Source: an uncultured Holophagae bacterium (GTDB lineage: Bacteria > Acidobacteriota > Thermoanaerobaculia > Thermoanaerobaculales > Sulfomarinibacteraceae). From it: DNA of 64,000 bases. Where the stretch lies: NCBI GenBank assembly GCA_963710645.1, contig CAVQBD010000003.1, positions 176,450 to 240,449 on the forward strand. Reading direction: 5' to 3'. Positions 31,076 through 57,730 of the stretch are shown in pieces; within the stretch, counting starts at the first letter, position 1, and each line of letters begins with the position of its first letter. Below the pieces are notes generated by a model. The model worked only from the letters and a program-made list of their open reading frames with translations, was not told where the DNA came from and did not search any database. A program made the translations under genes and the position numbers.

Positions 31076-32173
31076 ATGTTCCATCGACTCTCGGTCCGAC
31101 AACGCTGCGCACTCTCATGTTCGGTCCTGCTCTTGACCATTGGACTCCCCTCGGCAGGAGCTGCCGCCGACCACGGTTTCGCCGGGATGTCCACCACCGA
31201 CAACCTGATGGTCTTCGACCTCGAAGCAGGAGTTTCTTTGCCGCCGGCCATCAATCTCCTGCCCGAGGGCAACTACCCCTACGACGCCACAATCCACCCA
31301 GCCGGTCACGAGCTCTGGGTGGTGGGGGCAGGCGGTGACGGTGTCGTCGTCATCGATACCGCCACCGGGGCGATTCTCGACCGCATCGACCTCACCGGGA
31401 TGGCCGAGTACCCGGTGGACGTGGTGTTTTCCAGATCTGGCGACCTCGCCTATGTCAGCGGCCGAGACTCGGACCAGGTAGCGATCATTGACGTCGCCAC
31501 CCACAGCCTTACCGGCGCCACCGTCCCCATTGCGGCCCATGGTTCCGGCCCAGGCAAAATGGCCGTCAATCCGGCCACCGGCATGATCTACCTCGTGGAT
31601 TGGTATGACGACCAGCTTCACGTCATCGATCCCACAATCCCGGACGTCATCAGCTCCGACGTCGTGGGGAGCTCACTGTGGGACGTGACCGTTGACGCGG
31701 CCGGCACCACCATCTACCTCGCCGACCGCGGCACCGACCAGATCCACGTGCTCGATGCCACAGACCTCGGCCTGATCACCAGCGTGGCGGTGGGCGACGA
31801 CCCCTGGGGCCTCGACCTGACCCCCGATGCCAAGCTGCTCTTCGTGGCCAACGAGGACAGTCATGACGTGTCGGTCATCGACACGCCCACCAACACCGTC
31901 ACCACCACCATTCCTCTCGCCGGTGACGCCGACCCGAGGGACGTGGATATCAGCGCAGATGGTCTCGCGGCTTACGTGCCCTCGGGCTCCATAGCCGGTG
32001 ACGACGTGGTCTACGTCATAGATGTGGCGGCACTGGCGATCGTGGACACCATCTCCATGGCACCAACCTCGAATCCCAACGTCGTGGCGGTGGCACCGCA
32101 GGTCGGACTCATGATCTTCACCGACGGATTCGACTCGGGCGATGCTGGAGCGTGGTCCGCCATCTCGCCCTGA
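31076..32173 (+). CDS. Secreted YncE/YVTN-type beta-propeller with C-terminal IFxDGF tag
   Basis: GGAGG RBS; signal peptide; repeated P.DV..S.DG..YV / V.VID blades; ends IFTDGFDSGDAGAWSAISP. Confidence 0.9.
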   Translation: MFHRLSVRQRCALSCSVLLLTIGLPSAGAAADHGFAGMSTTDNLMVFDLEAGVSLPPAINLLPEGNYPYDATIHPAGHELWVVGAGGDGVVVIDTATGAILDRIDLTGMAEYPVDVVFSRSGDLAYVSGRDSDQVAIIDVATHSLTGATVPIAAHGSGPGKMAVNPATGMIYLVDWYDDQLHVIDPTIPDVISSDVVGSSLWDVTVDAAGTTIYLADRGTDQIHVLDATDLGLITSVAVGDDPWGLDLTPDAKLLFVANEDSHDVSVIDTPTNTVTTTIPLAGDADPRDVDISADGLAAYVPSGSIAGDDVVYVIDVAALAIVDTISMAPTSNPNVVAVAPQVGLMIFTDGFDSGDAGAWSAISP

Positions 32174-32248
32174 TCAATAGCAGCGTTTGGTGTACATCGA
32201 CGACCGAAACGAAAGAGATGGAATCGGTCCCGCGTCTTGTGAGTTCGT

Positions 32249-34342
32249 TTACGGCTTCACCCTGTCCCACTCGTCGAGGGTTCCCGAGTCCATTCCTGTT
32301 CTGAATATCTCGCAGTTGGTTCCGGGCAACCCGAAGGCCGCCTCGAGCCACGGCGTGAAGAAGATGGTGCCCGGACCGGAGATGACCGTGTCGCCATTTC
32401 CGGGTCCCTCCCCCGACGGGCCCGTGGAATCACCCCACCAAACGTTGCGGGCATCCAGATCAACCGGGTTGTCCAGGTACATACCGCCACCGACGTTCCC
32501 GGTGATGTCGTTGCACTGAGCCACGAAGCTCCCCGCACCTCCGAGACCGATGAAAACTACCCCGGTTTCGCCGTTTCCGACAAAGGAAGATCGCCTGATT
32601 TCGACGCGCTCGATGTCGACATTCTCTCGATAGAAGATCAAGCCGTCATCGGCGTTGCCTTCGACAACGCTGTCGACCACCTTCACCGGACCCACATCCC
32701 CCTCGAATTCGATCCCCATGTCGAGGTTGAAGCTCGTGGTGGCGCGGGCCACGAGCACCGGCCCGTGCACGTTGTCCATCCGCAGACCGGCTTCGCCGTT
32801 CCCGTTGGATACGATTCCGGACACGGTGACCGGTCCTTCAACGTGACCCAGCCAGATTCCATCTTCGGCACCATCGCTTCCGTTCCCGTTGGTGACGCAC
32901 GATCTGATGATGACCTCGTCCAGACGCTCGGGATCCAGGCCGTCGATTTTGATCCCCTTGCCTTCCGGGTTGTTACTGCTGACGCAGTCTTCCACACGCA
33001 CCCGAGCGCTGTTTTCGATCTCGATGCCTGTTGAGGTGTTGTCTCCGGCCGTGGCGCCGAACACAGTGATGTCTCCAATGGCTCGCAGAGAGTAACCCTC
33101 GTCGCCGTTCCCTAGGGCACCGCCGCCGGACACGTTGCACGCCCCGGTGACGCTGGAATCAACCGAAAAACCGTCCGATGTGTTGCCGTCAGCATTGCAG
33201 TCTTCGATCCATACCGAGGATGCATTCTCGACCACGAATCCGGAATCGAGGTTGTTCGAGGAGACTACTCCCGTGAGCGTCACTCCTCCGCCCGGCCGCA
33301 GATCGTAACCTTCGTCGGCATTTCTTTTGGCCTCCCCGCCCGACACCTCCACTGAGCCGGTCACGCTACCTTCCACCGCGACCCCGTCCGATCCGTTGTC
33401 ATTGGTCACCACATTGGTCAACACGGTTGGCCCCGAAACCTCCCGGATTCTCAGTCCGTTTTCGGCACCACCCTGTCCGTTGGCATTGACGGTGCAGTGG
33501 CTGATGAAGAGCCCGGGCACCAACCCTCCCCCATCCCCGGTGACGTGGATTCCCTGGCCCCCGTTGTTCGTCACCGTCGCGTTGCTTACGGTCACCGTCG
33601 CCGCGCTGCCGATGGACAGGCCGTCGCGACCGTTGCCGTCGGATGTCCCACCGGTGAGGGTTGTCTCCCCGTTCCCTTCGATCAAGATTCCGTCAAGAGT
33701 GTTCCCGGTGGCGCCAGGATTATTCAGTTCCACCGTTCCGGCCACATTCATGACGTGGATTCCGTGATGAGGGTTGTCGGTGCCCGCACAGTCGGTCAGG
33801 ACCGCCGACGCCGCCCCGTCGACCTGGATTCCCGTTCGCGCGCTGTTGGTCCCGGTGCACCGCTCGAGGGTGACCGGTCCGGTAGCGTCAATGACGATAG
33901 CTGTGTAGCCGCAGTTGATGGCGTTCACGTCTCTGAGGATCACCGGACCGGTCTGACCCAGCAACACGCCGCAGTCACCCGGGGACGAAAAATCGATGCC
34001 GTCCACGGTGAGGGTCCCGGTAAAAAACGAGGTGACGATACCCTCGTCGATTGGAGGGATCACCAGAACCGTTCCCGGTCCGTCGGCCGCCTCGATGGTC
34101 AGATCGCCCATCGTGTCCATAAACTGGGGTGTGAGCTTTTCGTTGAAGGTGCCGGGGTCGACGCTGACCGTGTCACCGTCGGAGGCGTGTTCAATGGCCG
34201 CCTGGATCGTGCAGCACGGTGTGCAGTTCGTGTCTGTGCAACCGGGCGTGCCGGGGGTCGCCACCTCCCACGTTGTCGCCGCCAAAGCCCCGGTCCAGCC
34301 CAAGACAACAACCAACGCTCCAACGATGAGTCTGTCACGCAT
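32249..34342 (-). CDS. Secreted right-handed parallel beta-helix protein with C-terminal tag
   Basis: PCCTIQAAI, GDTVSV.PG.F.E, many N..DG repeats, LDARNVWWGDSTGP; ends IFRTGMDSGTLDEWDRVKP. Confidence 0.9.
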   Translation of the reverse strand: MRDRLIVGALVVVLGWTGALAATTWEVATPGTPGCTDTNCTPCCTIQAAIEHASDGDTVSVDPGTFNEKLTPQFMDTMGDLTIEAADGPGTVLVIPPIDEGIVTSFFTGTLTVDGIDFSSPGDCGVLLGQTGPVILRDVNAINCGYTAIVIDATGPVTLERCTGTNSARTGIQVDGAASAVLTDCAGTDNPHHGIHVMNVAGTVELNNPGATGNTLDGILIEGNGETTLTGGTSDGNGRDGLSIGSAATVTVSNATVTNNGGQGIHVTGDGGGLVPGLFISHCTVNANGQGGAENGLRIREVSGPTVLTNVVTNDNGSDGVAVEGSVTGSVEVSGGEAKRNADEGYDLRPGGGVTLTGVVSSNNLDSGFVVENASSVWIEDCNADGNTSDGFSVDSSVTGACNVSGGGALGNGDEGYSLRAIGDITVFGATAGDNTSTGIEIENSARVRVEDCVSSNNPEGKGIKIDGLDPERLDEVIIRSCVTNGNGSDGAEDGIWLGHVEGPVTVSGIVSNGNGEAGLRMDNVHGPVLVARATTSFNLDMGIEFEGDVGPVKVVDSVVEGNADDGLIFYRENVDIERVEIRRSSFVGNGETGVVFIGLGGAGSFVAQCNDITGNVGGGMYLDNPVDLDARNVWWGDSTGPSGEGPGNGDTVISGPGTIFFTPWLEAAFGLPGTNCEIFRTGMDSGTLDEWDRVKP

Positions 34343-34372
34343 CCCGAACCTCCCCGGTTCAAACCTGGATTC

Positions 34373-34390
34373 TCATTGAGGCCTCAATGA
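34373..34390. promoter_or_regulatory. Perfect 18-bp palindrome, candidate operator
   Basis: TCATTGAGGCCTCAATGA in the divergent intergenic region, ~30 bp upstream of the beta-helix gene. Confidence 0.45.
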
Positions 34391-34558
34391 AACAATGTAC
34401 TGTCGCAGACATTTTGTCAATTTCTTGAAACCCCGCTCAATCGTCGGTGAAAACCGGACCGAATTCCGCGTCGTAGGGGTACCCATTCCCGACTTCCATC
34501 GGTGAGACGATGAGGTTCTCGGACTCGTATAATTGGAGAAACCCAACGGAGAAGAATC

Positions 34559-35650
34559 ATGAAGACCTGGATTGCGTCCCTCGTCGTCGTTCTCTGTGCT
34601 TCGGCAATGCCCGCCACGGCCCAAGAGACCCGGGGCGCTTCTTCGGTGCCGACACCCCGAACGTTGACGGTCGGGGACCTGCCCGACCCCTACCCCTGGG
34701 GATCGAAGATCGCCCGTGGTGCGCTCGTCCCGCTGGAGTTCTCCGTCGATCTGGACCGTCTCGCGCCGCTCGGCACGACTCCCGGCAACGGCGCCGTCTG
34801 GTTCGCCGATTTCTCCAAGAATATCGGCCCCCGAATCTCCGAGTACGAAGCGGCGCAGTCCTCCACCATGATGTGGCAGGAGAACGGACAAGACCGCAAG
34901 ATCCTGCCTCCCGATCACCCGCTGCTGTTGGAGGCCGAGCCCGCCGTCGACCAGGGCCGTTGGTCATTCTACCCCGACGTCTACCCCTGGACCGGCCCGT
35001 CGACACCCATCGCGAACTTGCTCTTCGCCCTCCAACTCGGCAGGTCCTGGATCGCCAGGGGCCAGCAGGCGACCGATCCCGAGCTGACAGTCGAGGATTA
35101 TCGCCGCACGGTTCGCCTCGGGCGCCTCCTGCTCCAAGACGACGTCACCCTCATTCAGAACCTCATCGGCACCCATCTGGTTCGGACAGGCGTCGACGCC
35201 ATCTACCGCCAGGCGCGCGAGCGCGGCGATGGCGCCACCGCGGCCTTTGCGGCGCTCGTCCTCCAAGATTGTGCGGTTCTCCGTATCGAAATGACTCGGC
35301 GCTTCCAGGACATTGCCACATTCTCCGACTTCGTTGCGCGAATCGACGCCGACGATGGGTCTGACCACATCGAGCTTCGGTTGCCCGACGATCGCCTGGC
35401 CGCGTTGGTCACTGCCGCGACCGAGGACCCGAGCCGCGCCCTTCGGATCGAGTCCACCACACCACTGTGGATCACCAGCCACATGGGCACCGAGTCTCAG
35501 CGAGAGATTGCGGAGCGGGTCTTTGCCCGACTGGTGGACGACCCCGATCCACTGGTGGCCGCCGCAGCCGCCGATCTGACGTCACGAGAGTTTGACCCGC
35601 TGGACCTGGAGGCCCATTGGGGCATCCCGGCTCCCTCGAACGGGCAGTGA
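34559..35650 (+). CDS. Hypothetical secreted alpha-helical protein
   Basis: GGAG RBS; signal peptide MKTWIASLVVVLCASAMPATA; HEAT-like C-terminus (LVDDPDPLV). Confidence 0.75.
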   Translation: MKTWIASLVVVLCASAMPATAQETRGASSVPTPRTLTVGDLPDPYPWGSKIARGALVPLEFSVDLDRLAPLGTTPGNGAVWFADFSKNIGPRISEYEAAQSSTMMWQENGQDRKILPPDHPLLLEAEPAVDQGRWSFYPDVYPWTGPSTPIANLLFALQLGRSWIARGQQATDPELTVEDYRRTVRLGRLLLQDDVTLIQNLIGTHLVRTGVDAIYRQARERGDGATAAFAALVLQDCAVLRIEMTRRFQDIATFSDFVARIDADDGSDHIELRLPDDRLAALVTAATEDPSRALRIESTTPLWITSHMGTESQREIAERVFARLVDDPDPLVAAAAADLTSREFDPLDLEAHWGIPAPSNGQ

Positions 35651-35678
35651 GAACGACCTTTCCGAACCGGGCGGAAAC

Positions 35679-37007
35679 TCAAGGTCTATAGCTCTGGATC
35701 CGCGACTCCGGAACCCGTTGCGACAACCGGGCCACCCTCTCCCGCACCCTGGCGATGATCTCGTGCTTGTCCAAGGTCAGCAGCTCACGATCCCGCATGA
35801 CAACCCTGCCGTCACAGATCACTGTCTGAACATCCGAAGACCGTGCCGAGTACACCATGTTGGCCAGTGGGTCGTGCACCGGTTGATGGTGCGCACCGGA
35901 CAGATCGACCAAAATGAGATCGGCCAGAAAACCGGGCGCGACGCGGCCCAGATCATCGGGCCGGCCAAAGACCGTCGCGCTCTCCACGGTCGCGATGGTC
36001 AGCGCCTGATCAACGGTCATGATGCGGGGATCACCCGCCTCGTGTTTGCTGACCAAGGCCATCAGACGCAGTGACTCCAGGACATCCAGGGTGTTGTTGG
36101 AGACCGGGCCGTCGGTGGCCAGCCCAACCGACAGCCCCGCGGACCGGAAGGCCTGAACAGGTGCGGCACCCGTGCCGAGCTTGAGATATGTCTTGGGTGC
36201 GTGCGCGACACCACATTTCTTTTCCGCCATGAGCAAAATGTCGTCGGGCGTCGCGCCGCAACAATGAGCCAGGATGGTGGGCCGGTCCAAGATCCCGGTG
36301 TCCGCCAGCACCTGGATCGGGGTGCGACCGTGCCGCTTGAGACTGGCCGCCGTCTGGTCGGCGGTCTCGGCCGCGTGGATATGGACCCCGAGGCCGAGCG
36401 ATTCGGCCTCCATGGCGATCAACTCCAGAAACTCGTCATCGCAGGTGTACGGAGCGTGGGGCGCGAGCCAGGTGGTGATCCGGCCCTCCGCCGCGCCGTT
36501 GTACTCGTCGGCGAATGATGAGGTGATTTCCACCCCTTCTTTCCCCTGGCTTCCGAACACCCCCCAACCCAGGGCGGCCCGGATTCCGGCCTGCTCCACC
36601 GCCTCGGCGATCCGGTTCATGTGAAAGTAGTGGTCGGCCACCGAGGTCACTCCGGCCTCGATGAGTTCGGCCAGCCCGAGCTGCATGCCCCAGAACACAT
36701 CGTCCTCGGTCAGATTGCTCTCCAGCGGCCAGATGTAGTCGTTGAACCAGGTGGCGATGTCCACGTCTTCGGCCAAACCGCGGAAAAGCGTCATGGGAAC
36801 GTGGGCGTGGGTGTTGATGAGACCGGGCATGGCCAGCATCCCCTGCCCGTCAATCACTTCGCCGCCCTCGATCACGGACAGCGTCCCTTTCGGACCGATC
36901 TCGGCAATCCGATTGCCACGGATCAGGATGTCACGGTCCTGCACGACCTCGCAGCCATCATCCTCGTACCGCAGCACACCCACGTCGCGGATCAACAGTT
37001 CCCTCAT
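35679..37007 (-). CDS. Amidohydrolase, MTA/SAH deaminase (MtaD)-like
   Basis: MPGLINTHAH, APHAPYTC, HIHAAET, AHC, GLATDG.SNN.LD. Confidence 0.9.
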   Translation of the reverse strand: MRELLIRDVGVLRYEDDGCEVVQDRDILIRGNRIAEIGPKGTLSVIEGGEVIDGQGMLAMPGLINTHAHVPMTLFRGLAEDVDIATWFNDYIWPLESNLTEDDVFWGMQLGLAELIEAGVTSVADHYFHMNRIAEAVEQAGIRAALGWGVFGSQGKEGVEITSSFADEYNGAAEGRITTWLAPHAPYTCDDEFLELIAMEAESLGLGVHIHAAETADQTAASLKRHGRTPIQVLADTGILDRPTILAHCCGATPDDILLMAEKKCGVAHAPKTYLKLGTGAAPVQAFRSAGLSVGLATDGPVSNNTLDVLESLRLMALVSKHEAGDPRIMTVDQALTIATVESATVFGRPDDLGRVAPGFLADLILVDLSGAHHQPVHDPLANMVYSARSSDVQTVICDGRVVMRDRELLTLDKHEIIARVRERVARLSQRVPESRIQSYRP

Positions 37008-37129
37008 AAACGAATATTGTGTTCCAGCCCCGGGTCGCTTGCAACGGCTGGGTCAGTGTTCCGACTCGAGCCGGGCCAACCGATGGCCGTGGACCTCCAA
37101 CTTCACCAGCCGGGTCATGGCGAGGCTGA

Positions 37130-37288
37130 AGAGGGCGCGAGCCATAAGAGATTTTCGGCCGGGTTGGGGACGAAGGACAGCGCGAAGAAGGTCAGCAGGA
37201 GACCGGTCTGGCCAGCCAAGACCCAGGGTCTTCTTCGTCCCATGGGCAAAAAGGTCCACCGGTCCATGATGGGTGCGTTGACAAGCGG
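37130..37288 (-). pseudogene. Internal fragment of an AmpG-like MFS transporter
   Basis: LVNAPIMDRWTFLPMGRRRPWVLAGQ is an MFS motif-A-like loop; there is no start and no continuation. Confidence 0.6.
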
Positions 37289-37327
37289 ACTCGGAAGCAA
37301 ACGGCGCGGCGGTGATAACCTCACGCG

Positions 37328-38092: not shown

Positions 38093-38104
38093 CTCGCGAC
38101 CGGC

Positions 38105-39784: not shown

Positions 39785-40309
39785 TCAGGGAGAGGGCGAC
39801 GAACCCGACCACGCCGACAGATTGCCACTCTCAAACCCGTCCATGAAGAGAAAGGCCATGATGTACAGATTGTAGGAACCACTGTCTCCGTTATAACAGT
39901 GGGATATCACGATGTCGTAATCCCCCGCCTCTTCAAAGATTGGACTCACGATGGAGATCGGCAGCGGAACACAGCCATTGATGTTGTAGATGTCATCGCA
40001 CGGGCTCGCGGGGTTGAAGGTCCCGGCCGGGTAGGCGACGATGACCGGGCGATTGATGGTTCCATCCATTTCGACCAGCGCGTAGCCCCCCGGAAAATTG
40101 TCCGTATAGACGTCGTACCACACCGCCGTCCCGTTACTCGACAGCGCGCACGGCGGGAAGGAGGTGCTGGGCCGGTTGAATGTGGGGTCGCCGGGTCCGA
40201 GCGTGCCGTGCACCTCGAAGTCCCAATCCTGCGCCGTGGCCACACTCGATCCGGCCAACAACACGAAAAGAACCCCACACACCACTACAAACTTCCCAGG
40301 AATGCCCAT
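39785..40309 (-). CDS. Small secreted Cys-rich protein with C-terminal tag
   Basis: AAAGGAG RBS; signal peptide; PTFNRP, FNPASPC; ends LFMDGFESGNLSAWSGSSPSP. Confidence 0.8.
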   Translation of the reverse strand: MGIPGKFVVVCGVLFVLLAGSSVATAQDWDFEVHGTLGPGDPTFNRPSTSFPPCALSSNGTAVWYDVYTDNFPGGYALVEMDGTINRPVIVAYPAGTFNPASPCDDIYNINGCVPLPISIVSPIFEEAGDYDIVISHCYNGDSGSYNLYIMAFLFMDGFESGNLSAWSGSSPSP

Positions 40310-41575: not shown

Positions 41576-41581
41576 GGACTC

Positions 41582-45933: not shown

Positions 45934-47502
45934 TCAGATAAAGAGCTTGATCTCGTGCCAGATCTGGTCAATTGGCAGTTTGATGCCTCGACATACCAGG
46001 ACCGCCATCCGGTCCTCCTGCGCCCAACGGGTCTCGACCACCGTGGCCGGCGTCACCTCGGAAAAATAATCCTCGAGGTCATCGGGGTCGAAGTTGATTG
46101 CGATCACCACGACGCCGGGATCGGCCGGTGGCGGCCCCCACAGCCAGTAGTTGTTGTGCCGACCGTAGACCGGAGGCAGCCGGTACTCACGAGCCCAGTA
46201 CTCCAACGCGCCCGAATGACCGTAGTTCCTGCCCATGATGATGGCCCGGGCTCGTTCCTCCTCCGGCAGCCCGTCCACGACATCGGCAATCGCCACCGCC
46301 AGCTCCCGCCACCCGAAGCGGTCGGAGAAATACTGGGGGAGTGCCGCATCGTGACCCACCTCGCCCGTGTTGGGCACCATTCCCAGCCGCTGCTGGTAGC
46401 GATCCAGCTCGGCGGGCGACAGCACCGGCAACCCCAGAGGAAGGAAGACCAGAAAACCGACCGCCAGCACCACCGCCATGACCCACCGGCCCCACCTCAG
46501 ACCGCGACGGCTGGTCCAGCGCTCCCAGGCCACGCCACCGGCCGCCATCATCACCGGTACGGAGGCCGCGAAATAATACGGCTTGCTCGTTTGCAGCACC
46601 AACACGAGCCATGTGACCACGACCATCAGGCCCACGATCCGGAATCTCCGCGCCGGTGGGGCGAACATGATCCAGAGCAGACCGCCCAACCACAGCGGAA
46701 CCGTTACCGGGTTGGCCTCCAGAATATTCTCAGCCAGAAAACCAAGGGGCGAAATGGCGGCAATCTTGTACCGTGTGGCGTTGTCCATGAACTCCAGGGT
46801 GGCCCAACCGTTGGCGGCATTCCACACAAGATAGGGCGCCAGAAAGAGCAACGCGGTCGCTGCCGCAAAATAGGTCCGCGGATCCAAGAGCTGACGTCGG
46901 TGCCGGGTGATCACCAAACCAACCGCCAACGCCAATCCCAACACGAGCACACCGACCTTGTTGAACAGTCCCAGCCCGAGCACAAGGCCGAGCCACGGCC
47001 ACCATCTCCCATCGTCCGTCTCGGCGATTCGAATGATCAGGTAGTAGGCCCCGATCCACACAAGGAAGTCGAAACAGTTCATGGAGTAGAAGCCGCAGAT
47101 CACCAATCCGGCGGCTCCGATGGCCACGCCAACTCCCGCAAAGAGCTGGGCCCAACGACCGCCGCCCAGCCGCGCCGCCGTCATACCCGTCAGCAGAATG
47201 AGCAGGGCCCCGCACAGCGCCGGTACCACTCGAATGGAGTGGACGGATTCACCAAACACAGCTTTCCATCCGGCCAGCAGCCAAATGGACATGGGAGGTT
47301 GGTCCACGTATCCCCACGCCAGCCGATCGGCGCACGCCAGGTAGTAATACTCGTCACGAAAGATGCCGTAGTTGCCGTTGGTGACGAAGTGGAGCACGAC
47401 CTGCGCCACAGCTGGAATCAGCAACCACGTCCATACCACCGGCTGGGATCGCAGTTCAGCGATCGAAGGCGACGGCGGAACAGGCTCGATCTTCGTGGCC
47501 AT
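45934..47502 (-). CDS. Glycosyltransferase family 39 (ArnT/PMT-like) membrane protein
   Basis: YGIFRDEYYY, LAWGYVDQPP, GLGLFNK, KPYY, DRFGW.E, HNNYWLWGP. Start uncertain (47502 or 47589). Confidence 0.88.
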   Translation of the reverse strand: MATKIEPVPPSPSIAELRSQPVVWTWLLIPAVAQVVLHFVTNGNYGIFRDEYYYLACADRLAWGYVDQPPMSIWLLAGWKAVFGESVHSIRVVPALCGALLILLTGMTAARLGGGRWAQLFAGVGVAIGAAGLVICGFYSMNCFDFLVWIGAYYLIIRIAETDDGRWWPWLGLVLGLGLFNKVGVLVLGLALAVGLVITRHRRQLLDPRTYFAAATALLFLAPYLVWNAANGWATLEFMDNATRYKIAAISPLGFLAENILEANPVTVPLWLGGLLWIMFAPPARRFRIVGLMVVVTWLVLVLQTSKPYYFAASVPVMMAAGGVAWERWTSRRGLRWGRWVMAVVLAVGFLVFLPLGLPVLSPAELDRYQQRLGMVPNTGEVGHDAALPQYFSDRFGWRELAVAIADVVDGLPEEERARAIIMGRNYGHSGALEYWAREYRLPPVYGRHNNYWLWGPPPADPGVVVIAINFDPDDLEDYFSEVTPATVVETRWAQEDRMAVLVCRGIKLPIDQIWHEIKLFI

Positions 47503-47585
47503 GAGCGAATCGAGCCTATCACCGAACGCGGCCGCCGGGCGGAGGTTCGCTGAGATGGCGGCCGCCGCCGGTTGACATCCGGCAG

Positions 47586-48191
47586 TCACTTACGCTCGTA
47601 GAGGATCTCCATGGACTTGAACTCGCCGGTGGGGGTGATCATGAACATCTCCATCAGCTCGTTGCCGCCGTCAAGCTTGGTGACCACGCCGCGAGTTTCT
47701 TCGATATTCTTGGTCATCGGATCGACGTAGTCACCGTAAAAGACGCCGATTCCCTTCTCGAAATCCCACTCCCCGTCCGAAGTCATGATCCCGGTGGACA
47801 TGTTGTCGAGCCAGGTGCCCCACCATTTCCCGGTCACGTTGTTGTAACCGGTGAGACCCCGTCCCTCGAAGGGCTGGCCCATGACCGTGCCGTGCACCGT
47901 CTCCTCGAGGTATCGTCCGCCCATGATCATCTTTCGCGAGGCGGTCCCGGTGGAAACATCCGGCTCGGCGCCAGGCTCCATCCATGATTTCACCGTCATC
48001 TTGAACTCGCCCGCCATCTTGGCCATCTCGGCATGCTCCGGTCCAGGGGTCATGGACGCCTGCCACGCCTTCATCATCGCCTGCTGTTCGGTGCTCATCT
48101 CCGGAGCTTCCTGGGCGAGAGCGAGGCCGGAAAAGAAAACCAACACAACGAACACACACGCCATACTTCGGTTTCTGAACTCCACTTCCAT
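47586..48191 (-). CDS. DUF1579 domain secreted protein
   Basis: GGAGG RBS; signal peptide; TPGPEH, MGGRYL, PFEGRG.TGYNN, W.DNMSTG, MEI.Y.RK. Confidence 0.85.
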   Translation of the reverse strand: MEVEFRNRSMACVFVVLVFFSGLALAQEAPEMSTEQQAMMKAWQASMTPGPEHAEMAKMAGEFKMTVKSWMEPGAEPDVSTGTASRKMIMGGRYLEETVHGTVMGQPFEGRGLTGYNNVTGKWWGTWLDNMSTGIMTSDGEWDFEKGIGVFYGDYVDPMTKNIEETRGVVTKLDGGNELMEMFMITPTGEFKSMEILYERK

Positions 48192-48336: not shown

Positions 48337-48426
48337 CAAATCATATATTTGCATCGAATTCGTGAGAACACTACTCTCGATTGAGATTGCCCAACCCACG
48401 TGAAACACCGAAAGTTGAGGCTGGTC

Positions 48427-50022
48427 ATGCCCCGAAAAAGCATCTGCCGCTGGTTCGTCACCGTCATCTTCGCCGCCCTCCCCGCTCTTCCCAGCTCGGC
48501 TCAGGTCGAGTGGGTTTCTTCGGTCAACGGGCAGGGGTGGGTCCAGGGAATGGAGATCGATGCCGAGACGGGCGACGCCCTCCAGGTCGTGGACACCTTC
48601 ACCAACCACAGCGGAGGGACGGTTGCCGTGGACCTCCATCAGTCCTTCGTGACCGACGAGGTGTCCTACATTGCCCATACGGTCACCAGCGGAACCGTCA
48701 CCCAGCCGGACAGCGAGGTCCGGTGGGCTCTCATTCTCGGCGCATGGCAATCCGCAACTCTCACCGTCTATTTCGCTGTGGATCCGTGCAACTGGCCCGA
48801 GAGTGACATCCAGCGACTGTGGGTCAATGAGAACCAGCGGCGCGACGTCACCGTCGACAAATGGCTGCATGATCTCCAGATCGACAGCAGCTACGAGGCA
48901 GAGGTGTTTTCTGGTCAACCGGCAGCGTTCCAGCTGCAAGCCGGAAACGCTGGCGGTTATGAGAACAACGCCGAAATCTGGTGCGTCTTCTCTCCCAACG
49001 CACCCTTTGGTGACGCAAGCCCGCCCGCGACGTATGTGGATCCAACCGGTCTCACAGCCAACTGGGAACTTGGCGACCTGAGCAATGGCTCCTCCACCTC
49101 GATCACCGTTACGGCAGACGTCGAAGAGGGTCTCCCAGTTGGCACACCGGTGCCAACTCTGTGCTCGATCCAGGACCACACGGGAGTCCTCGTGGCCAAC
49201 ACCAACATCGCCCACACGACGGTGTCCAAAACCATTTGGGAAACCGCCGTAGATTCACAGGCATGGTTCCCCGGATTGACCACCGTCCACGAAACCGGCG
49301 ACACCATCGAAGTCATCGAGGCACTCTACAATCGGTCGGGAGAGTCCATCGACGCCTACTTGACTCAGGGCTTCGGACCGTCCCAGCTCTCCCTGCTCGA
49401 CGTGTCCGTGTCCCAGGGCAGTGTCACCCAAAACCCTGGCAACACCAGTTGGCAGGTTCAGATTTCAGTCGGGCAAACCGTAACCATGACGGGACTCTAC
49501 TCTGTTGAACCCTGCACCTGGATCGAAAGCGTTATCAACACAGAGTTGGCAGAGACCAACGAAGTGCGCACGATCCTCATCGAAAAGACACCGGCGGACC
49601 TGTGGATCGCGAGTACCTATGACCCTCCGGTCACACCCGGACAGACGGCATCAATCGAGCTCCACTACGGCAACGACGGCGGCTACGAAAACAACGTTGT
49701 GCTCTGGTGCAACCTGCCTGACCAGGCGCCCTTCAACGAATCCCAGCCGCCGCCGGACTTTGTCGACCCGGATGGCCACGCGGTCCGCTGGGACCTGGGC
49801 GATCTGGCCAATGGCGACGCCGGTGCCATCGAACTCACCGCAGACATCGATGAAGGGCTGCCGCCGGCCGTCCAGATCGAGATCCTGTGTCAAATCTTCG
49901 ATCACGTCGACGGGTTGGCTGGGGAAACGGTGATCACCCTCATCACCATCGACGCCACGGTGATTTTCGAAGACGGGTTCGAATCGGGAGATACCTCTTG
50001 GTGGTCCGAAACTGTGGCGTGA
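48427..50022 (+). CDS. Secreted beta-sandwich (DUF11-like) protein with internal duplication and C-terminal tag
   Basis: Signal peptide; two ~245-aa repeats (ETGD...PC.W.ES...GN.GGYENN...WC...W.LGDL.NG); ends IFEDGFESGDTSWWSETVA. Confidence 0.85.
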   Translation: MPRKSICRWFVTVIFAALPALPSSAQVEWVSSVNGQGWVQGMEIDAETGDALQVVDTFTNHSGGTVAVDLHQSFVTDEVSYIAHTVTSGTVTQPDSEVRWALILGAWQSATLTVYFAVDPCNWPESDIQRLWVNENQRRDVTVDKWLHDLQIDSSYEAEVFSGQPAAFQLQAGNAGGYENNAEIWCVFSPNAPFGDASPPATYVDPTGLTANWELGDLSNGSSTSITVTADVEEGLPVGTPVPTLCSIQDHTGVLVANTNIAHTTVSKTIWETAVDSQAWFPGLTTVHETGDTIEVIEALYNRSGESIDAYLTQGFGPSQLSLLDVSVSQGSVTQNPGNTSWQVQISVGQTVTMTGLYSVEPCTWIESVINTELAETNEVRTILIEKTPADLWIASTYDPPVTPGQTASIELHYGNDGGYENNVVLWCNLPDQAPFNESQPPPDFVDPDGHAVRWDLGDLANGDAGAIELTADIDEGLPPAVQIEILCQIFDHVDGLAGETVITLITIDATVIFEDGFESGDTSWWSETVA

Positions 50023-51958: not shown

Positions 51959-51979
51959 GACGGCCTCCCTCCTCCTCGA

Positions 51980-52630
51980 TCAGTCGGTGAGATGTGCGAG
52001 CACCTCGATGGTTTCCTCCGGCTCCGGCCGGCGGGTGTAGTCGGGATCCATGCGTGCGTAACGAACCACGCCGTCGGCGCCGATGATGTACCGCGCTGGC
52101 ATGGGCAGGGTCCAGCTGTCCTCCCCCTGGCCCTCGGCAAGATCTATCCCGAACCGCAGGTACAGCGCCTTCAGATCGTCGGGCAGTGACCATCGCAGTC
52201 CATACGCGGCGGCCACCTCGTTGCCCTTATCTCGCAGGACCTCGAACCGCAGCTTGTGTTTCTCTACAAAGCCGCGGCTCCTGTCCATCAACTGGGGTGA
52301 GACCGCGATGACGGTGGCGCCCGCCTCGGCGATTTTGTCGTATACCTTGTTTAGAGCATCCAGCTCTGCATTGCAGTATGGTCACCAATCGCCGCGAAAA
52401 AAGGTCAGCACGACCGGACCTCTGGACAACGCGTCGGCGAAAGCCGTCGGTGTTCCCTGGCTGTCGTTGAGGGTGAAGTCCGGAGCGCGCTGTCCCTCCC
52501 CCACAACTCCGTCCATGATGCCCGAGGCCCTCAGGCCATCGGTTGCGCCGTGCATGATTTCGAGCACCTCCGGCGGCGCCTGTTTCTCGAAGCCTTCTCT
52601 GATGCTATCCAGTCTTGCCTGCAACGACAT
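51980..52630 (-). CDS. AhpC/TSA peroxiredoxin-like selenoprotein (in-frame TGA = Sec, UxxC motif)
   Basis: ORFs 52382-52630 and 51980-52291 are in the same frame. Read-through gives APDFTL...GPVVLTFFRGDW-U-PYCNAELDAL...VIAVSPQ...WTLPMPARYII...DYTRRPEP, 216 aa. Confidence 0.92.
52342..52381 (-). promoter_or_regulatory. Putative bacterial SECIS hairpin
   Basis: Directly 3' of UGA: apical stem AGAGC-(UGGAU)-GCUCU starting 15 nt after UGA, with lower AUAC/GUAU pairing. Confidence 0.65.
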
Positions 52631-52761
52631 TCATGTCCTCCGATGGTCTTCGTTCTATTGTGCTGCTAAGAAGGCGCCGTCGAAGACCCGACGACAAATC
52701 ACGAGCAACACCGGTCACAACATCCGGGCCGAACAAGGTATTGCAGAGGATCCGCGGCCAA

Positions 52762-53634
52762 TTACCCGTGAAGGGCGTTCCACTCGGCGATCTTCTCCTG
52801 CAACCGCTGCTTCAATTCGTTTTTGGCAGCCTCCGCCTGCAGGTAGATCTCCTCAGCCCGGTGAAAGTGGAGGGTTCGGAATTCCCTCAACTCCGGTTTG
52901 ATGTAGATATCGGGTGCGTGGGCCTCGAGTTCGCGCTCCACAATGGCCTGCTGCATGATCTGGATCGAGCCGAAGATGTTGTTGAAGTAACCCGGCACCG
53001 ATCCGTACTCTGCCGCGCTGCCGGAGTTGATGTCGATGGCCACCACGATGTCGCAGGAATCCGTCAGCACGTCGTAGGGAACCGGGTTCGCGGTGCCGCC
53101 GTCGATGAGCACCCGCCCGCCGATCTCCACCGGCGGAAAGAGACCCGGCAGGGCCATGCTGGCCTGGACGGCGGGCTTGAGCGGCCCCGAATCGAGCACC
53201 ACAGTCCTCCGTTCCCAGAAGTCGGTGGCCACGACCTTGAACGGAATCGCGAGGTCCTCGAACGTCTCACACGAACGGTCCTGACAGAGTCCGGCCAGAA
53301 CCGTCTCGGCCTTGACCAAACCGCTGGTGCGGAAGCTGGGGTCGATGAGCCCAATCCACCGGCCGACCTTGCGATCGGAGAACACGCTTTTCACGGTGTC
53401 GCTCTGCAGGTAGGCGAAGTCCTTGATTGTCTCGCGTATCTCGGCGGCCGGCAACCCTGACGCGTAAAGCGCGCCCATGACCGCACCGATACTGGACCCG
53501 CTCACGCAGTGGGGCGTGATCCCCAACTCGTCGAGAGCTTCCAACATGGGGATGTGGGCCACGCCCTTGGCCCCGCCCGCTCCGAGTGCGATTCCTATTC
53601 TGGGCTCCCCGCCACTTTTCTTTCTCCCGGACAT
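52762..53634 (-). CDS. Patatin-like phospholipase
   Basis: ALGAGGAKG.AHI, GSSIG, ASMALPG.F, DGG..NPVP. Confidence 0.93.
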   Translation of the reverse strand: MSGRKKSGGEPRIGIALGAGGAKGVAHIPMLEALDELGITPHCVSGSSIGAVMGALYASGLPAAEIRETIKDFAYLQSDTVKSVFSDRKVGRWIGLIDPSFRTSGLVKAETVLAGLCQDRSCETFEDLAIPFKVVATDFWERRTVVLDSGPLKPAVQASMALPGLFPPVEIGGRVLIDGGTANPVPYDVLTDSCDIVVAIDINSGSAAEYGSVPGYFNNIFGSIQIMQQAIVERELEAHAPDIYIKPELREFRTLHFHRAEEIYLQAEAAKNELKQRLQEKIAEWNALHG

Positions 53635-53642
53635 TCAGGACC

Positions 53643-54356
53643 TCAGAGACTCGGCGGCAGCGGTGGTTTGGGACGCTTGAGCAGCGAGCGTCCAGCGACG
53701 AGGAGAATGTACACCAGGTATCCGGCTGACGAAGCGACCCCGGCGACGTAGGTCATGGCCGCTGCCCGCAAAACCTCCCGTGCACCCTCCTGCCCGTCGG
53801 CTGAAATGAGACCGAGTTTATCCAGCTGCCGGAGGGCCCGCTTGCTGGCGTTGAACTCCACCGGCAGGGTCAAAAACGTGAGCAGCATGGCGCCAGCGTA
53901 ACCCAGGATTCCGATCTGCACCATCGCGTTTGAGCCGAAGAAGCTCCCGGCGACCGCCAGCGGCAAGCCGAAACGGGCGCCCGCATTGGCGACCGGCACC
54001 ATGGCCGTCCGGAATTCCATCGGTCGATAATCATCCGCATCCTGGAGGGCGTGGCCGCACTCGTGCGCCGCCACGGCGGTCGCGGCGACACTGTTTCCCA
54101 CAAAGTTGTCGCGTGCGAGCCGCACATGTTTGTTGCGGGGATCGTAGTGGTCCGTGAGCTGACCCTGAACCGGCTCCACAGGAACGGACTGCAGCCCATT
54201 GGCGTCGAGGATGGTCCGTGCCACCCGACCTCCAGGTTCTCCGGTGACGCTCCGGACCCGGCTCCAACGGCTGTAGGTCGACTTCAGTTTTTGCCGGATT
54301 CCGAGAGAAAACACAAAGACTACACCGGCGATGACGTAATAGACGATCGTCTCCAT
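53643..54356 (-). CDS. Membrane zinc metallopeptidase (YugP-like)
   Basis: GQLTDHYDP, AAHECGHALQ, TLPVEFNASKRA, VL.AAAMTYVA. Confidence 0.92.
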   Translation of the reverse strand: METIVYYVIAGVVFVFSLGIRQKLKSTYSRWSRVRSVTGEPGGRVARTILDANGLQSVPVEPVQGQLTDHYDPRNKHVRLARDNFVGNSVAATAVAAHECGHALQDADDYRPMEFRTAMVPVANAGARFGLPLAVAGSFFGSNAMVQIGILGYAGAMLLTFLTLPVEFNASKRALRQLDKLGLISADGQEGAREVLRAAAMTYVAGVASSAGYLVYILLVAGRSLLKRPKPPLPPSL

Positions 54357-54620
54357 TTGCCCCAAACTCCTTCTGTCGACCGGTTCCCGGTCAGGGCATC
54401 ACGCTCTCCCGTGGTCGTCCCTACCTCATATCGATGCAAGTCAATCTACCACCGGAAGCCGGCGCCTACATCCCTCCAAACGGGTCAGAAACAAGAAATG
54501 CTGCCCGGACCTCCGCCGGTATCTGGTGACGCGCAGATTGCTCTTGTAAGCTGGGTCCTCATGTAGACCAACGAATCGTCTCAGGGTCACCGACCGGCAA
54601 CGACCGAAGAGGGGGAGATC

Positions 54621-55319
54621 ATGAGAAAACCGAAAAGACAGTGCGTGCTCTTGGCGGCAGCAATCTTGGTGATGGTGGTTGGAACTGGAGTCGTCGCGGC
54701 CGACGACGCTGAAACTCCCGGGCAGGCGGGCGAAAAGGTCGGTATTGAAGGGCAATTCGTCCGGGTGGCGGAGAACGCCGAGGGATGGGTGGTGGTCGGC
54801 TACCGCACGGCCAATGAATCGGTCAAAGAGGACTGGATGTTGCTCGATATGGGCCTGACCCTGCAAAACGGAGTGAAGGACCAAACCCTCACCCGGGAGG
54901 ATGTCACGCTGGTGACGCCCGACCGCAAGGTCATTCCGCTGCCTTCGCAGAAGACCTACGAGGACGCGTCCGGCGCCCTTCGCTCGCTGAACGCGCGGGC
55001 GTCCATGCAGTCGGATTCCATCAACTACTTCCCACCCGGCACAGACAAACCGTGCCGGATCGGCTTCTTTGCCGACACCACCCATCCCGGGCGGACCCTG
55101 GCTTACGACCAGGTCGACCTCAACAGCCAACGCGCCTGCGTAGGACGGGTCTATTTTCAGGTCCCTGGCGGCATTCAATATGGCCTCTACAACCTCGACG
55201 TGAAATTCGCCGGCAGTACGGTCCGGGTGCCCGTCAAGATCATGACCAAAGACGAGGCGACGGACCTCGCAAAGCAGTGGGAACAGGAGAAGAAGGAGAA
55301 CAAGGACGGGGGCAAGTAA
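54621..55319 (+). CDS. Hypothetical secreted protein
   Basis: GGGGGAG RBS; signal peptide; coherent 232-aa ORF. Confidence 0.75.
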   Translation: MRKPKRQCVLLAAAILVMVVGTGVVAADDAETPGQAGEKVGIEGQFVRVAENAEGWVVVGYRTANESVKEDWMLLDMGLTLQNGVKDQTLTREDVTLVTPDRKVIPLPSQKTYEDASGALRSLNARASMQSDSINYFPPGTDKPCRIGFFADTTHPGRTLAYDQVDLNSQRACVGRVYFQVPGGIQYGLYNLDVKFAGSTVRVPVKIMTKDEATDLAKQWEQEKKENKDGGK

Positions 55320-55415
55320 GTTGGGTTGTCGAGCTGGATCGGGCACCAAAATCAGCCGTTCAACACCTGATCTATCAAACCCATGGGGTTTTAAAGAGCG
55401 GAGGCCCTCAACCAC

Positions 55416-55958
55416 ATGAGCACCCAGATCGCCCTCTTCCGAGGGATCAACGTCGGCGGGAACAATCCGTTGCCCATGAGGGAGCTTGTGGAAGATCTCG
55501 AGGCTCTTGGTCTGAAAAACGTTTCCACCTACATTCAGAGCGGCAATGTCGTATTTGAATGCCTCGATACCGACCAGGTCGATCTCGCCGCCAGGATTCA
55601 ATCGGCGGTCGGTGACCGCCACGGATTCAAACCCCACGTCATGATCCTCGGCGTGGATGAGCTCGAGGATGCCGTGATCTCAAACCCGTTCCGCAGCGCC
55701 GAGTCGGAGCCGAAAACAATCCACCTTTTCTTCCTGGAATCGTCACCCGAAGACCCGGACGTGGAGTCTCTCCGAGATCTGAAGCTGAACACCGAAGATT
55801 TCGAACTCAAGGATCGGATCTTCTATCTCCACGCGCCCGAGGGAATCGGTCGATCAAAGTTGGCAGCGCGGGTGGAACGAGCCCTCGGCGTGCCGGTCAC
55901 CGCGAGAAATTGGCGATCGGTCGTGAGGATCCTGGACATGGCGAAGGCCTGTCGCTGA
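55416..55958 (+). CDS. DUF1697 domain protein
   Basis: IALFRGINVGG, TYIQSGNVVF, NPF, G.GRSKL, TARNW. Confidence 0.92.
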   Translation: MSTQIALFRGINVGGNNPLPMRELVEDLEALGLKNVSTYIQSGNVVFECLDTDQVDLAARIQSAVGDRHGFKPHVMILGVDELEDAVISNPFRSAESEPKTIHLFFLESSPEDPDVESLRDLKLNTEDFELKDRIFYLHAPEGIGRSKLAARVERALGVPVTARNWRSVVRILDMAKACR

Positions 55959-56014
55959 CCAGATCACCCGCGGCCGAGAAAGTGGTGCCGGTCGTGGTGC
56001 GTCAGCTGTCCGTG

Positions 56015-56158
56015 TCCCGGTGCCAGGGCCGACACTTTCAGCCCACTGCCTAGAGATTGGGCACCTCCCGGTGCCAGGGCCGACACTCTCGGCCCACTGC
56101 CTAGAGATTGCAGGGGAGCCCCTCTCACAGAAGGACCAAAGTGTCGGCCCTGGCACCG
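56015..56158. repeat. REP-like cluster: two 45-bp direct repeats plus an inverted copy
   Basis: TCCCGGTGCCAGGGCCGACACTYTCRGCCCACTGCCTAGAGATTG at 56015 and 56066; inverted AAAGTGTCGGCCCTGGCACCG at 56138-56158. Confidence 0.85.
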
Positions 56159-56275
56159 TTGTGGGCACCGTTGTGTTTTGTGGCGCCGACCGGCGCGATC
56201 GTGCGATGATGACGTCAGTGCGATTTCGCGACCGACGATCAGCAATTCGAAGAGCAGCGGACAGAAGGGGTTGAG

Positions 56276-57730
56276 ATGCATTTCACCGGACGAATGATGG
56301 CGTTGACGGCAGTCACCATTATCGCGTTGTCGGTTTCCGCGCCTGCCGAATGGTCCACCAGTCCGGCCACCAACCTGGTCGTGGCCGATCGGTCCGGTGA
56401 ACAGGTCCAGCCCAAGATCGTGGCCACCGGTGACGGAGGATTCTACATCAGCTGGTTCGACAACTCTGCGGGCGGCTACGACGTCTACCTGCAGCGACTG
56501 GACGCTGTGGGTGACGAGCAGTGGGCGCACAATGGAGTTTTGGTGGCGGATCGGAGCTACAGCTCGACCCAGGACTACGGCCTGAGCATCGATACCGCCG
56601 GCAATGCATTGCTCGCATTCCGTGATGACCGGGACGGACCCGACAAGGTGACAGTCTCCAAGATCAGTCCAGACGGCACCCTCCTTTGGGGTATTGACGG
56701 AGTCGAGGTCTCCTCCGGATCCGGTTTTTTTGCCGTGCCAAAGGTGGCCGGCACAACTGACGGCAACGTGGTCGTGGCCTGGATCTCCGACGACGACGTC
56801 GTGGCCCAGAAGCTCGATCCGGCAGGGGCCCCATTGTGGGGCGCAGGCGTCACTTTGTCCCCCACAGCCGATTCGTTCAGCCTCTGCGATCTCCATGCCT
56901 CCGACGCGGGCACGTCGATTCTGTCGTTTATTGCCGGTCCCTTCCTCGGGCCCAATCACCTGTGGGCGCAGAAACTCGCAGCGGCGGATGGCGCCCTCCT
57001 GTGGGGGGCGGGACACGTTCAGGTCTTTGACGGCGGCTCGCTACAGATCGCCAACCGCCCACCCTTCGTCACTGATGGTGCCGGCGGTGCGGTCTTCGCC
57101 TGGTACACCAGTGTCCCAACTTTCCAGTGCAGGGTCCAACGGATCCTCGCCAACGGCTCCGAGGTCTTTGCCCATCAGGGCGTCGAAGTCTCTACCAACG
57201 CCTCCCAGATTCGGGTCAATCCGCGCGCCGCCTTCCTACCGACCACCGAGGAGATTGTCGTGTTCTGGAAAGAACAGAACCCGGCGCAGAGTCAGTCCGG
57301 TCTGTGGGGACAGAAGATCGACAACGCCGGTGTCCGTCAATGGACCGACAACGGCCTCGAGTTCATGCCCATCAGCTCGGACCAGGTCATGAGCGTCACC
57401 ACGCTCCCGTTCGCCGATGGCGCGATCGTGGCCTGGATCCACAGCGTCACCTTTGGCAACGACCCGGTCTACGCCATCCGCGTCGACGGCAACGGAGACT
57501 TCGTCTGGTCGCCGCCCATCTCCGAAGTGGGCATCTTACCCACCTCCTCGTCGAGGCTCGCCGGTGCCCTGAGCTCGCAGGGTTTTGCCGCCTACGCGTG
57601 GAGTGACGGGGACCCCGCTGACATCCTCGCCCAGAACGTCAACCCGGACGGCAGCCTGGGCCCCGGGGCGATCTTCGTCGACGGTTTCGAGTCGGGCGAC
57701 ACCACCGAGTGGTCGGCGACGAACCCCTAG
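56276..57730 (+). CDS. Secreted repeat (beta-propeller-like) protein with C-terminal tag
   Basis: Signal peptide; repeats DG.GG..I.W...Y.QR.D..G...W...G; ends IFVDGFESGDTTEWSATNP. Confidence 0.88.
   Translation: MHFTGRMMALTAVTIIALSVSAPAEWSTSPATNLVVADRSGEQVQPKIVATGDGGFYISWFDNSAGGYDVYLQRLDAVGDEQWAHNGVLVADRSYSSTQDYGLSIDTAGNALLAFRDDRDGPDKVTVSKISPDGTLLWGIDGVEVSSGSGFFAVPKVAGTTDGNVVVAWISDDDVVAQKLDPAGAPLWGAGVTLSPTADSFSLCDLHASDAGTSILSFIAGPFLGPNHLWAQKLAAADGALLWGAGHVQVFDGGSLQIANRPPFVTDGAGGAVFAWYTSVPTFQCRVQRILANGSEVFAHQGVEVSTNASQIRVNPRAAFLPTTEEIVVFWKEQNPAQSQSGLWGQKIDNAGVRQWTDNGLEFMPISSDQVMSVTTLPFADGAIVAWIHSVTFGNDPVYAIRVDGNGDFVWSPPISEVGILPTSSSRLAGALSSQGFAAYAWSDGDPADILAQNVNPDGSLGPGAIFVDGFESGDTTEWSATNP

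Follow-up and report, generated by a model that had tools for sequence, protein, structure and literature searches.

To our knowledge, bacteria display or retain exported proteins by means of a membrane-spanning signal that is cut by a sortase-like enzyme, a C-terminal domain that folds, or two complete domains that pair. Signals of the sortase and exosortase type consist of a motif, a hydrophobic transmembrane helix and a basic cluster at the C-terminus, and the C-terminal domain of the type IX secretion system (T9SS; TIGR04183) is a folded beta-sandwich of about 70-100 residues. The dockerin is a folded calcium-binding module of ~70 residues, its cohesin partner is a complete domain, and scaffoldins are anchored by surface-layer homology (SLH) repeats. 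In pilus systems the pilin immunoglobulin (Ig) fold receives a strand from a fellow subunit, an usher and a chaperone take part, and the outcome is fibre growth. SpyTag and SpyCatcher are laboratory constructs from the CnaB2 domain that join by a covalent isopeptide bond. Here we consider a C-terminal tail that is shared by five exported proteins in a window of 64,000 nucleotides (the whole stretch of DNA analysed, G000:C3:176450-240449) from an uncultured Holophagae bacterium whose genome is designated G000 (4.9 Mb in 9 contigs). The explanation that we think probable is that the tail is one half of a split domain, and that the exported proteins dock non-covalently, by strand complementation, to the product of a separate gene, the catcher. 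The following are computed observations: the tag and its place at the end of the proteins, the homology of this tag to the first strand of a jelly-roll domain, the strand-less catcher family, the co-occurrence of tag and catcher, and the relatives in which the domain is unsplit.

A sequence-only reading of the window had placed the tail on five proteins. All five tails lie at the positions given by that reading, and in each case the tail directly precedes a stop codon, with tails 1, 4 and 5 on the + strand and tails 2 and 3, whose strand the reading left unstated, on the - strand:

31040..32173, + strand: carrier 1 (P0001), an exported beta-propeller protein of the lactonase/YVTN type (family matches)
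32114..32173, + strand: tail 1, IFTDGFDSGDAGAWSAISP, stop follows (tail profile, five-tail alignment)
32249..34342, - strand: carrier 2 (P0002), an exported right-handed beta-helix protein (Beta_helix / NosD, Pfam)
32249..32308, - strand: tail 2, IFRTGMDSGTLDEWDRVKP, stop follows (tail profile, alignment)
39785..40309, - strand: carrier 3 (P0003), a small exported protein of 174 aa with no family match
39785..39850, - strand: tail 3, LFMDGFESGNLSAWSGSSPSP, stop follows, with 7 residues past the W
48400..50022, + strand: carrier 4 (P0004), exported, built of two halves that resemble each other, with a DUF11 domain (Pfam)
49963..50022, + strand: tail 4, IFEDGFESGDTSWWSETVA, stop follows
56276..57730, + strand: carrier 5 (P0005), an exported protein of 484 aa with no family match
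57671..57730, + strand: tail 5, IFVDGFESGDTTEWSATNP, stop follows; used as the partner chain in the complex model described below

The residues F, G, S, G and W are invariant in the alignment of the five tails, among which tail 2 is the most divergent (27 bits), and within the window the tail profile matches these five copies only. All five N-termini are signal-peptide-like, and the true start of carrier 1 is probably the ATG that gives MFHRLSVRQR. The carriers had also been described as proteins of different folds; this stands for the propeller of P0001, the beta-helix of P0002 and the DUF11 protein P0004; P0003 and P0005 match no family. A Pfam scan of 48 open reading frames (ORFs) neighbouring the carriers in the window revealed no common partner or sorting enzyme.

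The tail extends to proteins encoded throughout the genome, as the sequence-only reading had anticipated. A strict tail pattern run on 6.75 million residues of six-frame G000 ORFs gave 42 matches, 39 of them no more than 8 residues from a stop, and none in the same ORFs reversed; the string DGFESG occurs 47 times in the forward ORFs and is absent from the reversed control. Such numbers lie far outside what chance would give. With a profile made from 39 tails and a threshold of at least 13 bits, 84 ORFs are matched, and 78 of these matches end no more than 5 residues before the stop. The remaining six include one N-terminal copy that follows a signal peptide and precedes a Pro-rich linker, one copy before a Pro/Thr linker, and four lying 13-88 residues before the end. 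The tails have the consensus [ILV]-F-x-D-G-F-E-S-G-D-[TL]-[ST]-x-W-S-x-[TA]-V-P, with exactly 5 residues past the W in 69 of the 78 terminal copies and Pro as the last residue in 58. Tails are 19-21 residues long and have neither a hydrophobic stretch nor a basic cluster, most of them ending in S-x-T-V-P, which upholds the earlier description of a tag that lacks a membrane helix and basic tail and is much shorter than a T9SS domain. The carrier scans gave no Pfam or NCBIfam model that extends over the tail region. In other families of the class the tails are likewise C-terminal, with 0-9 residues past the W, and this variability places the conserved part in the core up to the W. Recognition of the outer-membrane-protein beta-signal type or of the PDZ type was set aside on the same spread of lengths and on a last residue that is Pro and not aromatic.

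In some mature proteins the motif is N-terminal (G000 ORFs C3_p0_93438 and C9_p1_561298, both outside the window, and P0074), in the order signal peptide, motif and Cys/Pro-rich linker, so a free C-terminus is not strictly required by the tag. Some metagenome proteins (P0025, P0033, P0038, P0051) have tandem copies of the motif ~21 residues apart at the C-terminus, and three others (P0037, P0049, P0061) have internal copies with Pro- or Gly-rich linkers between them.

The carriers bear the marks of exported proteins. Signal peptides were called only by crude rules of our own, one loose and one strict, with 1500 control ORFs; by the strict rule they are present in 47 of 78 carriers and 313 of the 1500 controls (odds ratio 5.7), and by the loose rule in 64 and 655, respectively. 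Together with the 78 terminal copies among 84, and within the limits of these crude rules, this agrees with the expectation that the motif is enriched at the C-termini of proteins with signal peptides. Among 50 further carriers scanned, 29 have a Pfam match, and the families represented are M28, C1 and S15 peptidases, glucose/sorbosone dehydrogenase, BNR/sortilin, Kelch, PKD, LamG, peptidyl-arginine deiminase, MtrC-like multihaem cytochromes and the Tat-type DUF1501. Such a mixed list is typical of a sorting or anchoring tag. Choice-of-anchor J scores above its cut-off in one cargo protein, with choice-of-anchor B, O and X below theirs, and some cargo matches M36 peptidases that depend on rhombosortase or myxosortase; the cargo types thus appear to overlap with types that use other anchors elsewhere. 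The DUF1501 carrier (G000:C9:657143-658501) combines a twin-arginine-like signal (MPKTTRRKFVVG) with the tail, so that cargo exported in folded form is also tagged and the tag would act on folded proteins.

The CocE/NonD hydrolases include members with and without the tail. Nine copies end in the tail, all in tail-positive genomes, and 13 homologues finish at about residue 552, their short ends being unrelated; nine of these are in tail-less genomes (G010, G014 and family f2) and four are tail-less paralogues in the tail-positive genomes G000, G003, G004 and G005. The tail is a modular add-on. We note that three tandem CocE/NonD paralogues at G000:C5:22464-29368 have no tail and that two tailed paralogues are found on contig C9. 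An AlphaFold2 model of a small carrier, itself weak (mean pLDDT 63.7), leaves tail residues 198-220 below pLDDT 50 and with no secondary structure; this would fit a free appendage and is poor evidence for one.

Relatives of the motif in other bacteria indicate what it is. When 5.8 billion proteins were searched with a profile of 42-residue tails, 5540 of the 8000 candidates scored matched at E<=1, and two classes were drawn from the 120 hits listed. In the first, short to medium-length proteins, some of them labelled Thermoanaerobaculales or Acidobacteriota, have the motif at the extreme C-terminus, 5 residues from the end. In the second, long proteins, some labelled Pseudonocardiales, Jatrophihabitantaceae, Anaerolineales or Chloroflexota, contain it internally and repeatedly, often after fn3 domains, and each time followed by ~170-190 residues. 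These post-motif segments cluster as one domain family in 170 of 181 cases, and the unsplit domain of ~185 residues has sub-threshold matches to Polysacc_lyase (PF14099) and Laminin_G_3 (PF13385); for these reasons the motif appears to be the first beta-strand and loop of a ConA/LamG-like jelly-roll domain in many other bacteria. The matches in P0013 and P0007 score 23.6-29.6 bits: PF14099 gives 23.6 and 25.0, below its cut-off of 29.9, and PF13385 in P0013 gives 29.6 against a cut-off of 27.6, yet no single stretch passes. The PF14099 match in P0007 begins 5 residues past the start of the motif. The sequence-only reading had recognised that its sorting-signal claim would be refuted were the motif merely a strand of a larger known domain. 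Elsewhere it is such a strand, the first of a jelly roll, but the G000 carriers lack the remainder, which is encoded separately.

An AlphaFold2 model of an unsplit relative is a two-sheet jelly roll (mean pLDDT 76). Its top Foldseek matches are PL7/PL18 alginate lyases, CBM40 and, from the binding domains of clostridial neurotoxins, the lectin-like subdomain, with probability 1.0 but TM-scores of only 0.35-0.55. A sequence search of solved structures with P0013 matched its fn3 parts only.

A hidden Markov model (HMM) of the domain, run over all G000 ORFs, gave one good match, a protein outside the window that aligns with model positions 32-183 only (43 bits, E 1e-10):

G000:C6:149800-150522, - strand: P0126, the proposed catcher, 241 aa (domain HMM)

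P0126 consists of a signal peptide and a mature chain with the N-terminus ANELLVTSAAAL, which aligns with the strand next in order to the motif in the whole domain. It thus appears, from this alignment, to begin exactly where the tail ends, and to be the strand-less remainder of the split domain. P0126 matches no Pfam and no NCBIfam family, and a search of solved structures with the catcher profile returned a chance-level match only (E 0.086). The motif is absent from all 10 homologues examined in related genomes and from 52 of 53 database homologues. Family members share a common build, with a signal peptide and x-N-x-L-x-V-x(3)-AA-[LM]-x-G at the start and Y-F-D-x-[FY]-V-S-T-R or F-R-T-L-A-P at the end. 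Read-through or frameshifting into a hidden downstream domain was rejected as another way of completing the fold: next to the carriers the domain HMM matches no ORF of this kind, and the stops of the convergent carriers 1 and 2 sit 75 bases apart, which leaves no space for a read-through domain.

Comparison with unsplit relatives shows what has been separated. Both the outgroup G312, from another family of the phylum, and P0164 have a signal peptide, IFADGFESGDLSKWS and the domain, the motif reading IFADGFESG(D/N)LS(K/A)W, and when G312 is aligned with the strand-less proteins this region is a clean 24-residue insertion. A glucose/sorbosone dehydrogenase of G400 has the motif and the whole domain at its end, and the G000 dehydrogenase of the same type has the tail only. 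G161 encodes a large protein ending in the motif and full domain, and also a tail-bearing gene that is followed directly by a gene for a signal peptide and strand-less domain. Ordered as fused C-terminal domain, free whole domain, and tag with catcher, these forms make up a series. A different arrangement is seen on a short contig, G017:C652:1-2107, where a catcher-like domain is followed by a C-terminal copy of the motif (MSFADGFEWGDVSGW); from its layout this could be a self-capping protein or one that forms head-to-tail chains.

In the class sample the distribution of the catcher is that of the tag. In 151 genomes sampled evenly across the class, on which the tail profile and the catcher profile were each run, each matches 23 genomes and these are the same 23, with none discordant and 128 having neither. 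Three families in the sample are mixed (f1, 10 of 20; f8, 4 of 5; f10, 2 of 23), and the match is therefore not one of a single clade against the rest. In a second set, of 31 close relatives, tails are present in 16 (20-145 matches each) and were not found in three small genomes of the same family or in any of the 12 sister-family genomes. A search with P0126 finds homologues in 13 of the 31, all tail-positive, and the family profile adds catchers in G009 and G017 and not in G008.

These counts bear on the idea that the tail is an inert remnant of a truncated C-terminal jelly-roll domain, its co-occurrence with the catcher reflecting shared ancestry only. Relatives G400 and G161 do have full C-terminal domains on homologous cargo, and related genomes are not independent samples. 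We nevertheless consider an inert remnant very improbable, as F, DGFE, G and W are near-invariant across 78 paralogous contexts, 69 of which stop exactly 5 residues past the W, and independent truncations would not all end at the same residue. The terminal motif is likewise kept in several families of the class, and the 23 of 23 match, without discordance and with three mixed families, also speaks against it.

There is similarly little to commend a cleaved sorting signal of the sortase or exosortase type, whereby a peptidase or transpeptidase would attach the cargo covalently. The extreme C-terminal position and the cargo spectrum do resemble those of PEP-CTERM or GlyGly-CTERM proteins, some carriers have choice-of-anchor domains, and G000, the only genome searched for it, contains one weak exosortase-like ORF (31 bits, partial). 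However, all such signals need a hydrophobic helix and a basic cluster, both of which the tail lacks, and cleavage leaves unexplained why the tail corresponds to the very strand that the co-occurring protein is missing; we hold this to be a most improbable explanation.

The fit of tail and catcher was modelled as a complex of P0126 residues 25-241, supplied with the family alignment, and the 42-residue tail of P0005, supplied with 30 aligned tails. The scores were 0.64, 0.84 and 0.81 (median 0.81), and the best of three controls was 0.02; the mark used for such scores is reached by 58 of 80 solved complexes and by 2 of 110 mismatched pairs. At least 85% of contacts are common to the runs, with a partner pLDDT of 64 or more. 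Tail residues 22-34 and 37-42, among them I24-T34 and W37-P42, contact catcher residues 235-241, 69-78 (YVVTSHP), 28-30 and 54-58, so that the tail is modelled against the catcher C-terminal strand (235-241) and the most conserved residues of the protein. Of 21 invariant catcher columns, 13 lie within the 39 interface residues, where 3.8 are expected (hypergeometric P 2e-6). Docking of the tag to a candidate partner, as the sequence-only reading had envisaged, is thus obtained in a model, which suggests that the tail fits the strand-1 position and not that the pair binds.

The account that we find best supported is then as follows. Some 80 exported proteins would keep only the first strand of the domain, as their last 19-21 residues, and a separate gene would encode a signal peptide and the rest of the domain, as the catcher P0126. 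After export by Sec or Tat the tail would insert into the catcher as its missing strand, pairing with the C-terminal strand (YFD-x-F/Y-x-STR), its Trp buried against the conserved YV-x-S-x-HP segment, and in this way the catcher would bind each cargo non-covalently. The catcher would in turn hold the cargo at the cell envelope, in two lineages via fused SLH repeats. The binding, its place and its purpose are what we infer.

The clearest hint of a fixed receptor in the envelope is provided by these SLH-fused proteins. A single catcher was found in each of G303 and G012, and in both genomes it lacks the strand and is a fusion with SLH repeats; P0127 (G303) matches Pfam SLH with an E value of 4.7e-12, P0127 and P0128 share 41% identity along 305 residues, the repeats among them, and the repeats in G012 were assigned by homology. 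Since the G000 catcher has no anchor and its genome no SLH match, surface retention in G000 is a guess; one form of it is that the lectin-like face of the completed jelly roll would bind an envelope glycan. Of the roles originally suggested for the tag, namely secretion, surface anchoring or S-layer docking, docking or anchoring is favoured by the partner, the SLH fusions and the complex model, and nothing supports a role in membrane translocation.

An export function is nevertheless conceivable, in which the tail is an outer-membrane export signal and the strand-less protein a periplasmic pilot or chaperone that hands the cargo to a translocon, rather than an anchor. The carriers are a typical exoproteome (M28, C1 and S15 peptidases, BNR/sortilin glycosidase-like proteins, MtrC-like cytochromes), the G000 catcher has a signal peptide and no anchor, and the co-occurrence and complex model would fit equally well. 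No translocon candidate is seen beside the catcher, however, its neighbours being lipoprotein sulfatases, sulfotransferases, an FG-GAP protein and an extracytoplasmic function (ECF) sigma factor module, and the SLH-fused catchers of two lineages point to a fixed, wall-bound receptor. With the tailed Tat-type DUF1501 cargo also indicating that the tag acts on folded proteins, we regard a pilot as unlikely.

The neighbourhood of the catcher gene raises a further alternative. In G000 it belongs to a cluster (G000:C6:140000-159999) with genes for an ECF sigma factor, a zf-HC2 anti-sigma factor and a LiaF-like protein with three transmembrane segments, and it converges on genes for an FG-GAP/ASPIC lipoprotein and two lipoprotein sulfatases of ~900 aa. 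In G000, G007 and G011 the catcher gene follows those for the zf-HC2 anti-sigma factor and the LiaF-like membrane protein and faces that for the FG-GAP/ASPIC lipoprotein; LiaF-like and FG-GAP genes are also seen at the catcher locus of G004. An ECF sigma gene lies upstream of the catcher in G018 and a gene for a sigma-70 region-4 protein upstream in G149. Eight further catcher loci have flanking sulfatase genes and five have sulfotransferase genes, and a gene like that of the PMT_2 glycosyltransferases flanks it in G035. The regulatory genes would suit a tail that serves as an envelope-stress cue, undocked tails binding the catcher and signalling via the adjacent anti-sigma and ECF sigma pair, much as unassembled porin C-termini activate DegS and sigma-E in Escherichia coli. 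They recur as described in G000, G007 and G011, in part in G004, and with sigma factors in G018 and G149. Most of the catcher loci examined, though, have no sigma factor within their 1.5 kb flanks, an SLH-fused catcher is unlike a soluble sensor, and a cue has no need of ~80 highly conserved carriers, all of which make a stress signal decidedly unlikely. The export pilot, the stress cue and the inert remnant must all accommodate the same link between tail and catcher.

Several observations weigh against docking by strand complementation. P0126 itself has no anchor domain, and G000 gave no SLH match although the controls responded. In G008, a genome outside the class sample, 98 tail matches were found and no catcher (440 contigs, 94% complete), and G258, from another class, has a true C-terminal tail with no catcher detected by the profile. 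The tail count is only one or two in 3 of the 23 genomes, and in G400 one of these is the domain's own cis motif. Co-occurrence was counted genome by genome, and related genomes are not independent. The pass of the complex model may reflect likeness, since halves of one fold tend to pass. AlphaFold2 left the motif of a natural unsplit protein unplaced (residues 26-51 below pLDDT 50, with the motif in 1 of 14 alignment rows), a model outcome that seems neither for nor clearly against the proposal. The catcher evolves fast, with within-genus identities of 94, 66 and about 33% and synteny kept in three relatives only; this would hardly be expected of a receptor whose tag is highly conserved, though the predicted interface is the conserved part of the catcher. 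A single catcher gene serving ~80 cargo genes would need high catcher expression, and no RNA run is listed as containing the catcher locus; the DNA runs that contain it are sediment metagenomes.

Among the other genes of the window, a fusion of a Ser/Thr protein kinase with PD40 (TolB-like) propeller repeats is encoded just upstream of carrier 1 (28026-30773, +), and a small, very basic protein matching histone H1-like HC2 and extensin-like repeats directly after carrier 5 (57851-58363, -). A PMT_2 (ArnT-like) glycosyltransferase gene lies between carriers (45934-47589, -), and an adjacent DUF2950 / DUF3300 gene pair is present at 2436-4792 (-; Pfam E 3e-100 and 2e-72).

Set beside the described systems, the proposed mechanism would work most like donor-strand complementation combined with the logic of cohesin and dockerin. 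As in chaperone-usher and type V pili, an incomplete beta-sandwich would be completed by a strand of another polypeptide, but it is a ConA/LamG-like jelly roll and not a pilin Ig fold, the donors are ~80 unrelated enzymes and binding proteins rather than fellow subunits, no usher or chaperone is involved, and the outcome would be docking and not fibre growth. With cohesin and dockerin it would share the scheme of many secreted enzymes with one small C-terminal module and a receptor that has SLH repeats, here in two lineages; in contrast, the tag is 19-21 residues long and a fragment of the receptor's own fold, and no dockerin or cohesin family is among the Pfam matches of 55 carriers. LPXTG, PEP-CTERM, GlyGly-CTERM and MYXO-CTERM signals and the T9SS domain are similar in being extreme C-terminal elements on dozens of exported proteins, lineage-restricted and with overlapping cargo. 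The tail differs from the sortase-type signals in having no transmembrane helix or basic tail and in a co-occurring partner that is a binding domain and not a peptidase, and from the T9SS domain in being far shorter. TIGR04183 has no match in G000, a search that is uninformative because 14 control genomes were silent too. A defining feature thus fails for each of the sortase-type signal, the T9SS domain and the dockerin, and the tail is none of these. SpyTag and SpyCatcher are alike in that a domain is divided into a short tag and a larger catcher that reassemble, but here a jelly roll has been split in nature, and there is no sign of a covalent bond. The ConA-like and LamG domains are related through the sub-threshold PF13385 and PF14099 matches of the unsplit domain and its PL7/PL18- and CBM40-like model, from which P0126 stands apart in matching no Pfam or NCBIfam family and no solved chain by sequence, and the unsplit-relative model in TM-scores that stay at 0.35-0.55.

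The string DGFESG was not found in open-access article texts, subscription journals being outside the coverage; the literature matches listed for GFESG are all unrelated as judged by title and abstract; and no description of the tail or of a split-domain docking system was found among the open-access papers listed, judged in the same way. A tag-and-catcher docking system of this kind is probably previously undescribed. We see about an even prospect that it is a natural, proteome-wide tag and catcher, with ~20-145 tagged proteins per genome and one secreted catcher that is SLH-anchored in some lineages, and hence a new form of exoproteome organisation. A tag that is a fragment of its receptor's own fold, carried by ~80 unrelated proteins, would be a different principle from those by which bacteria are known to display or retain proteins, and the claim is directly testable because both partners are named. 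The 19-residue tag and 217-residue binder could also be of use as a non-covalent pair for protein assembly. The fused domain, the free whole domain and the split tag and catcher provide an evolutionary series for study, and the docking proposal, if true, would explain how these uncultured sediment bacteria hold their extracellular enzymes and cytochromes.

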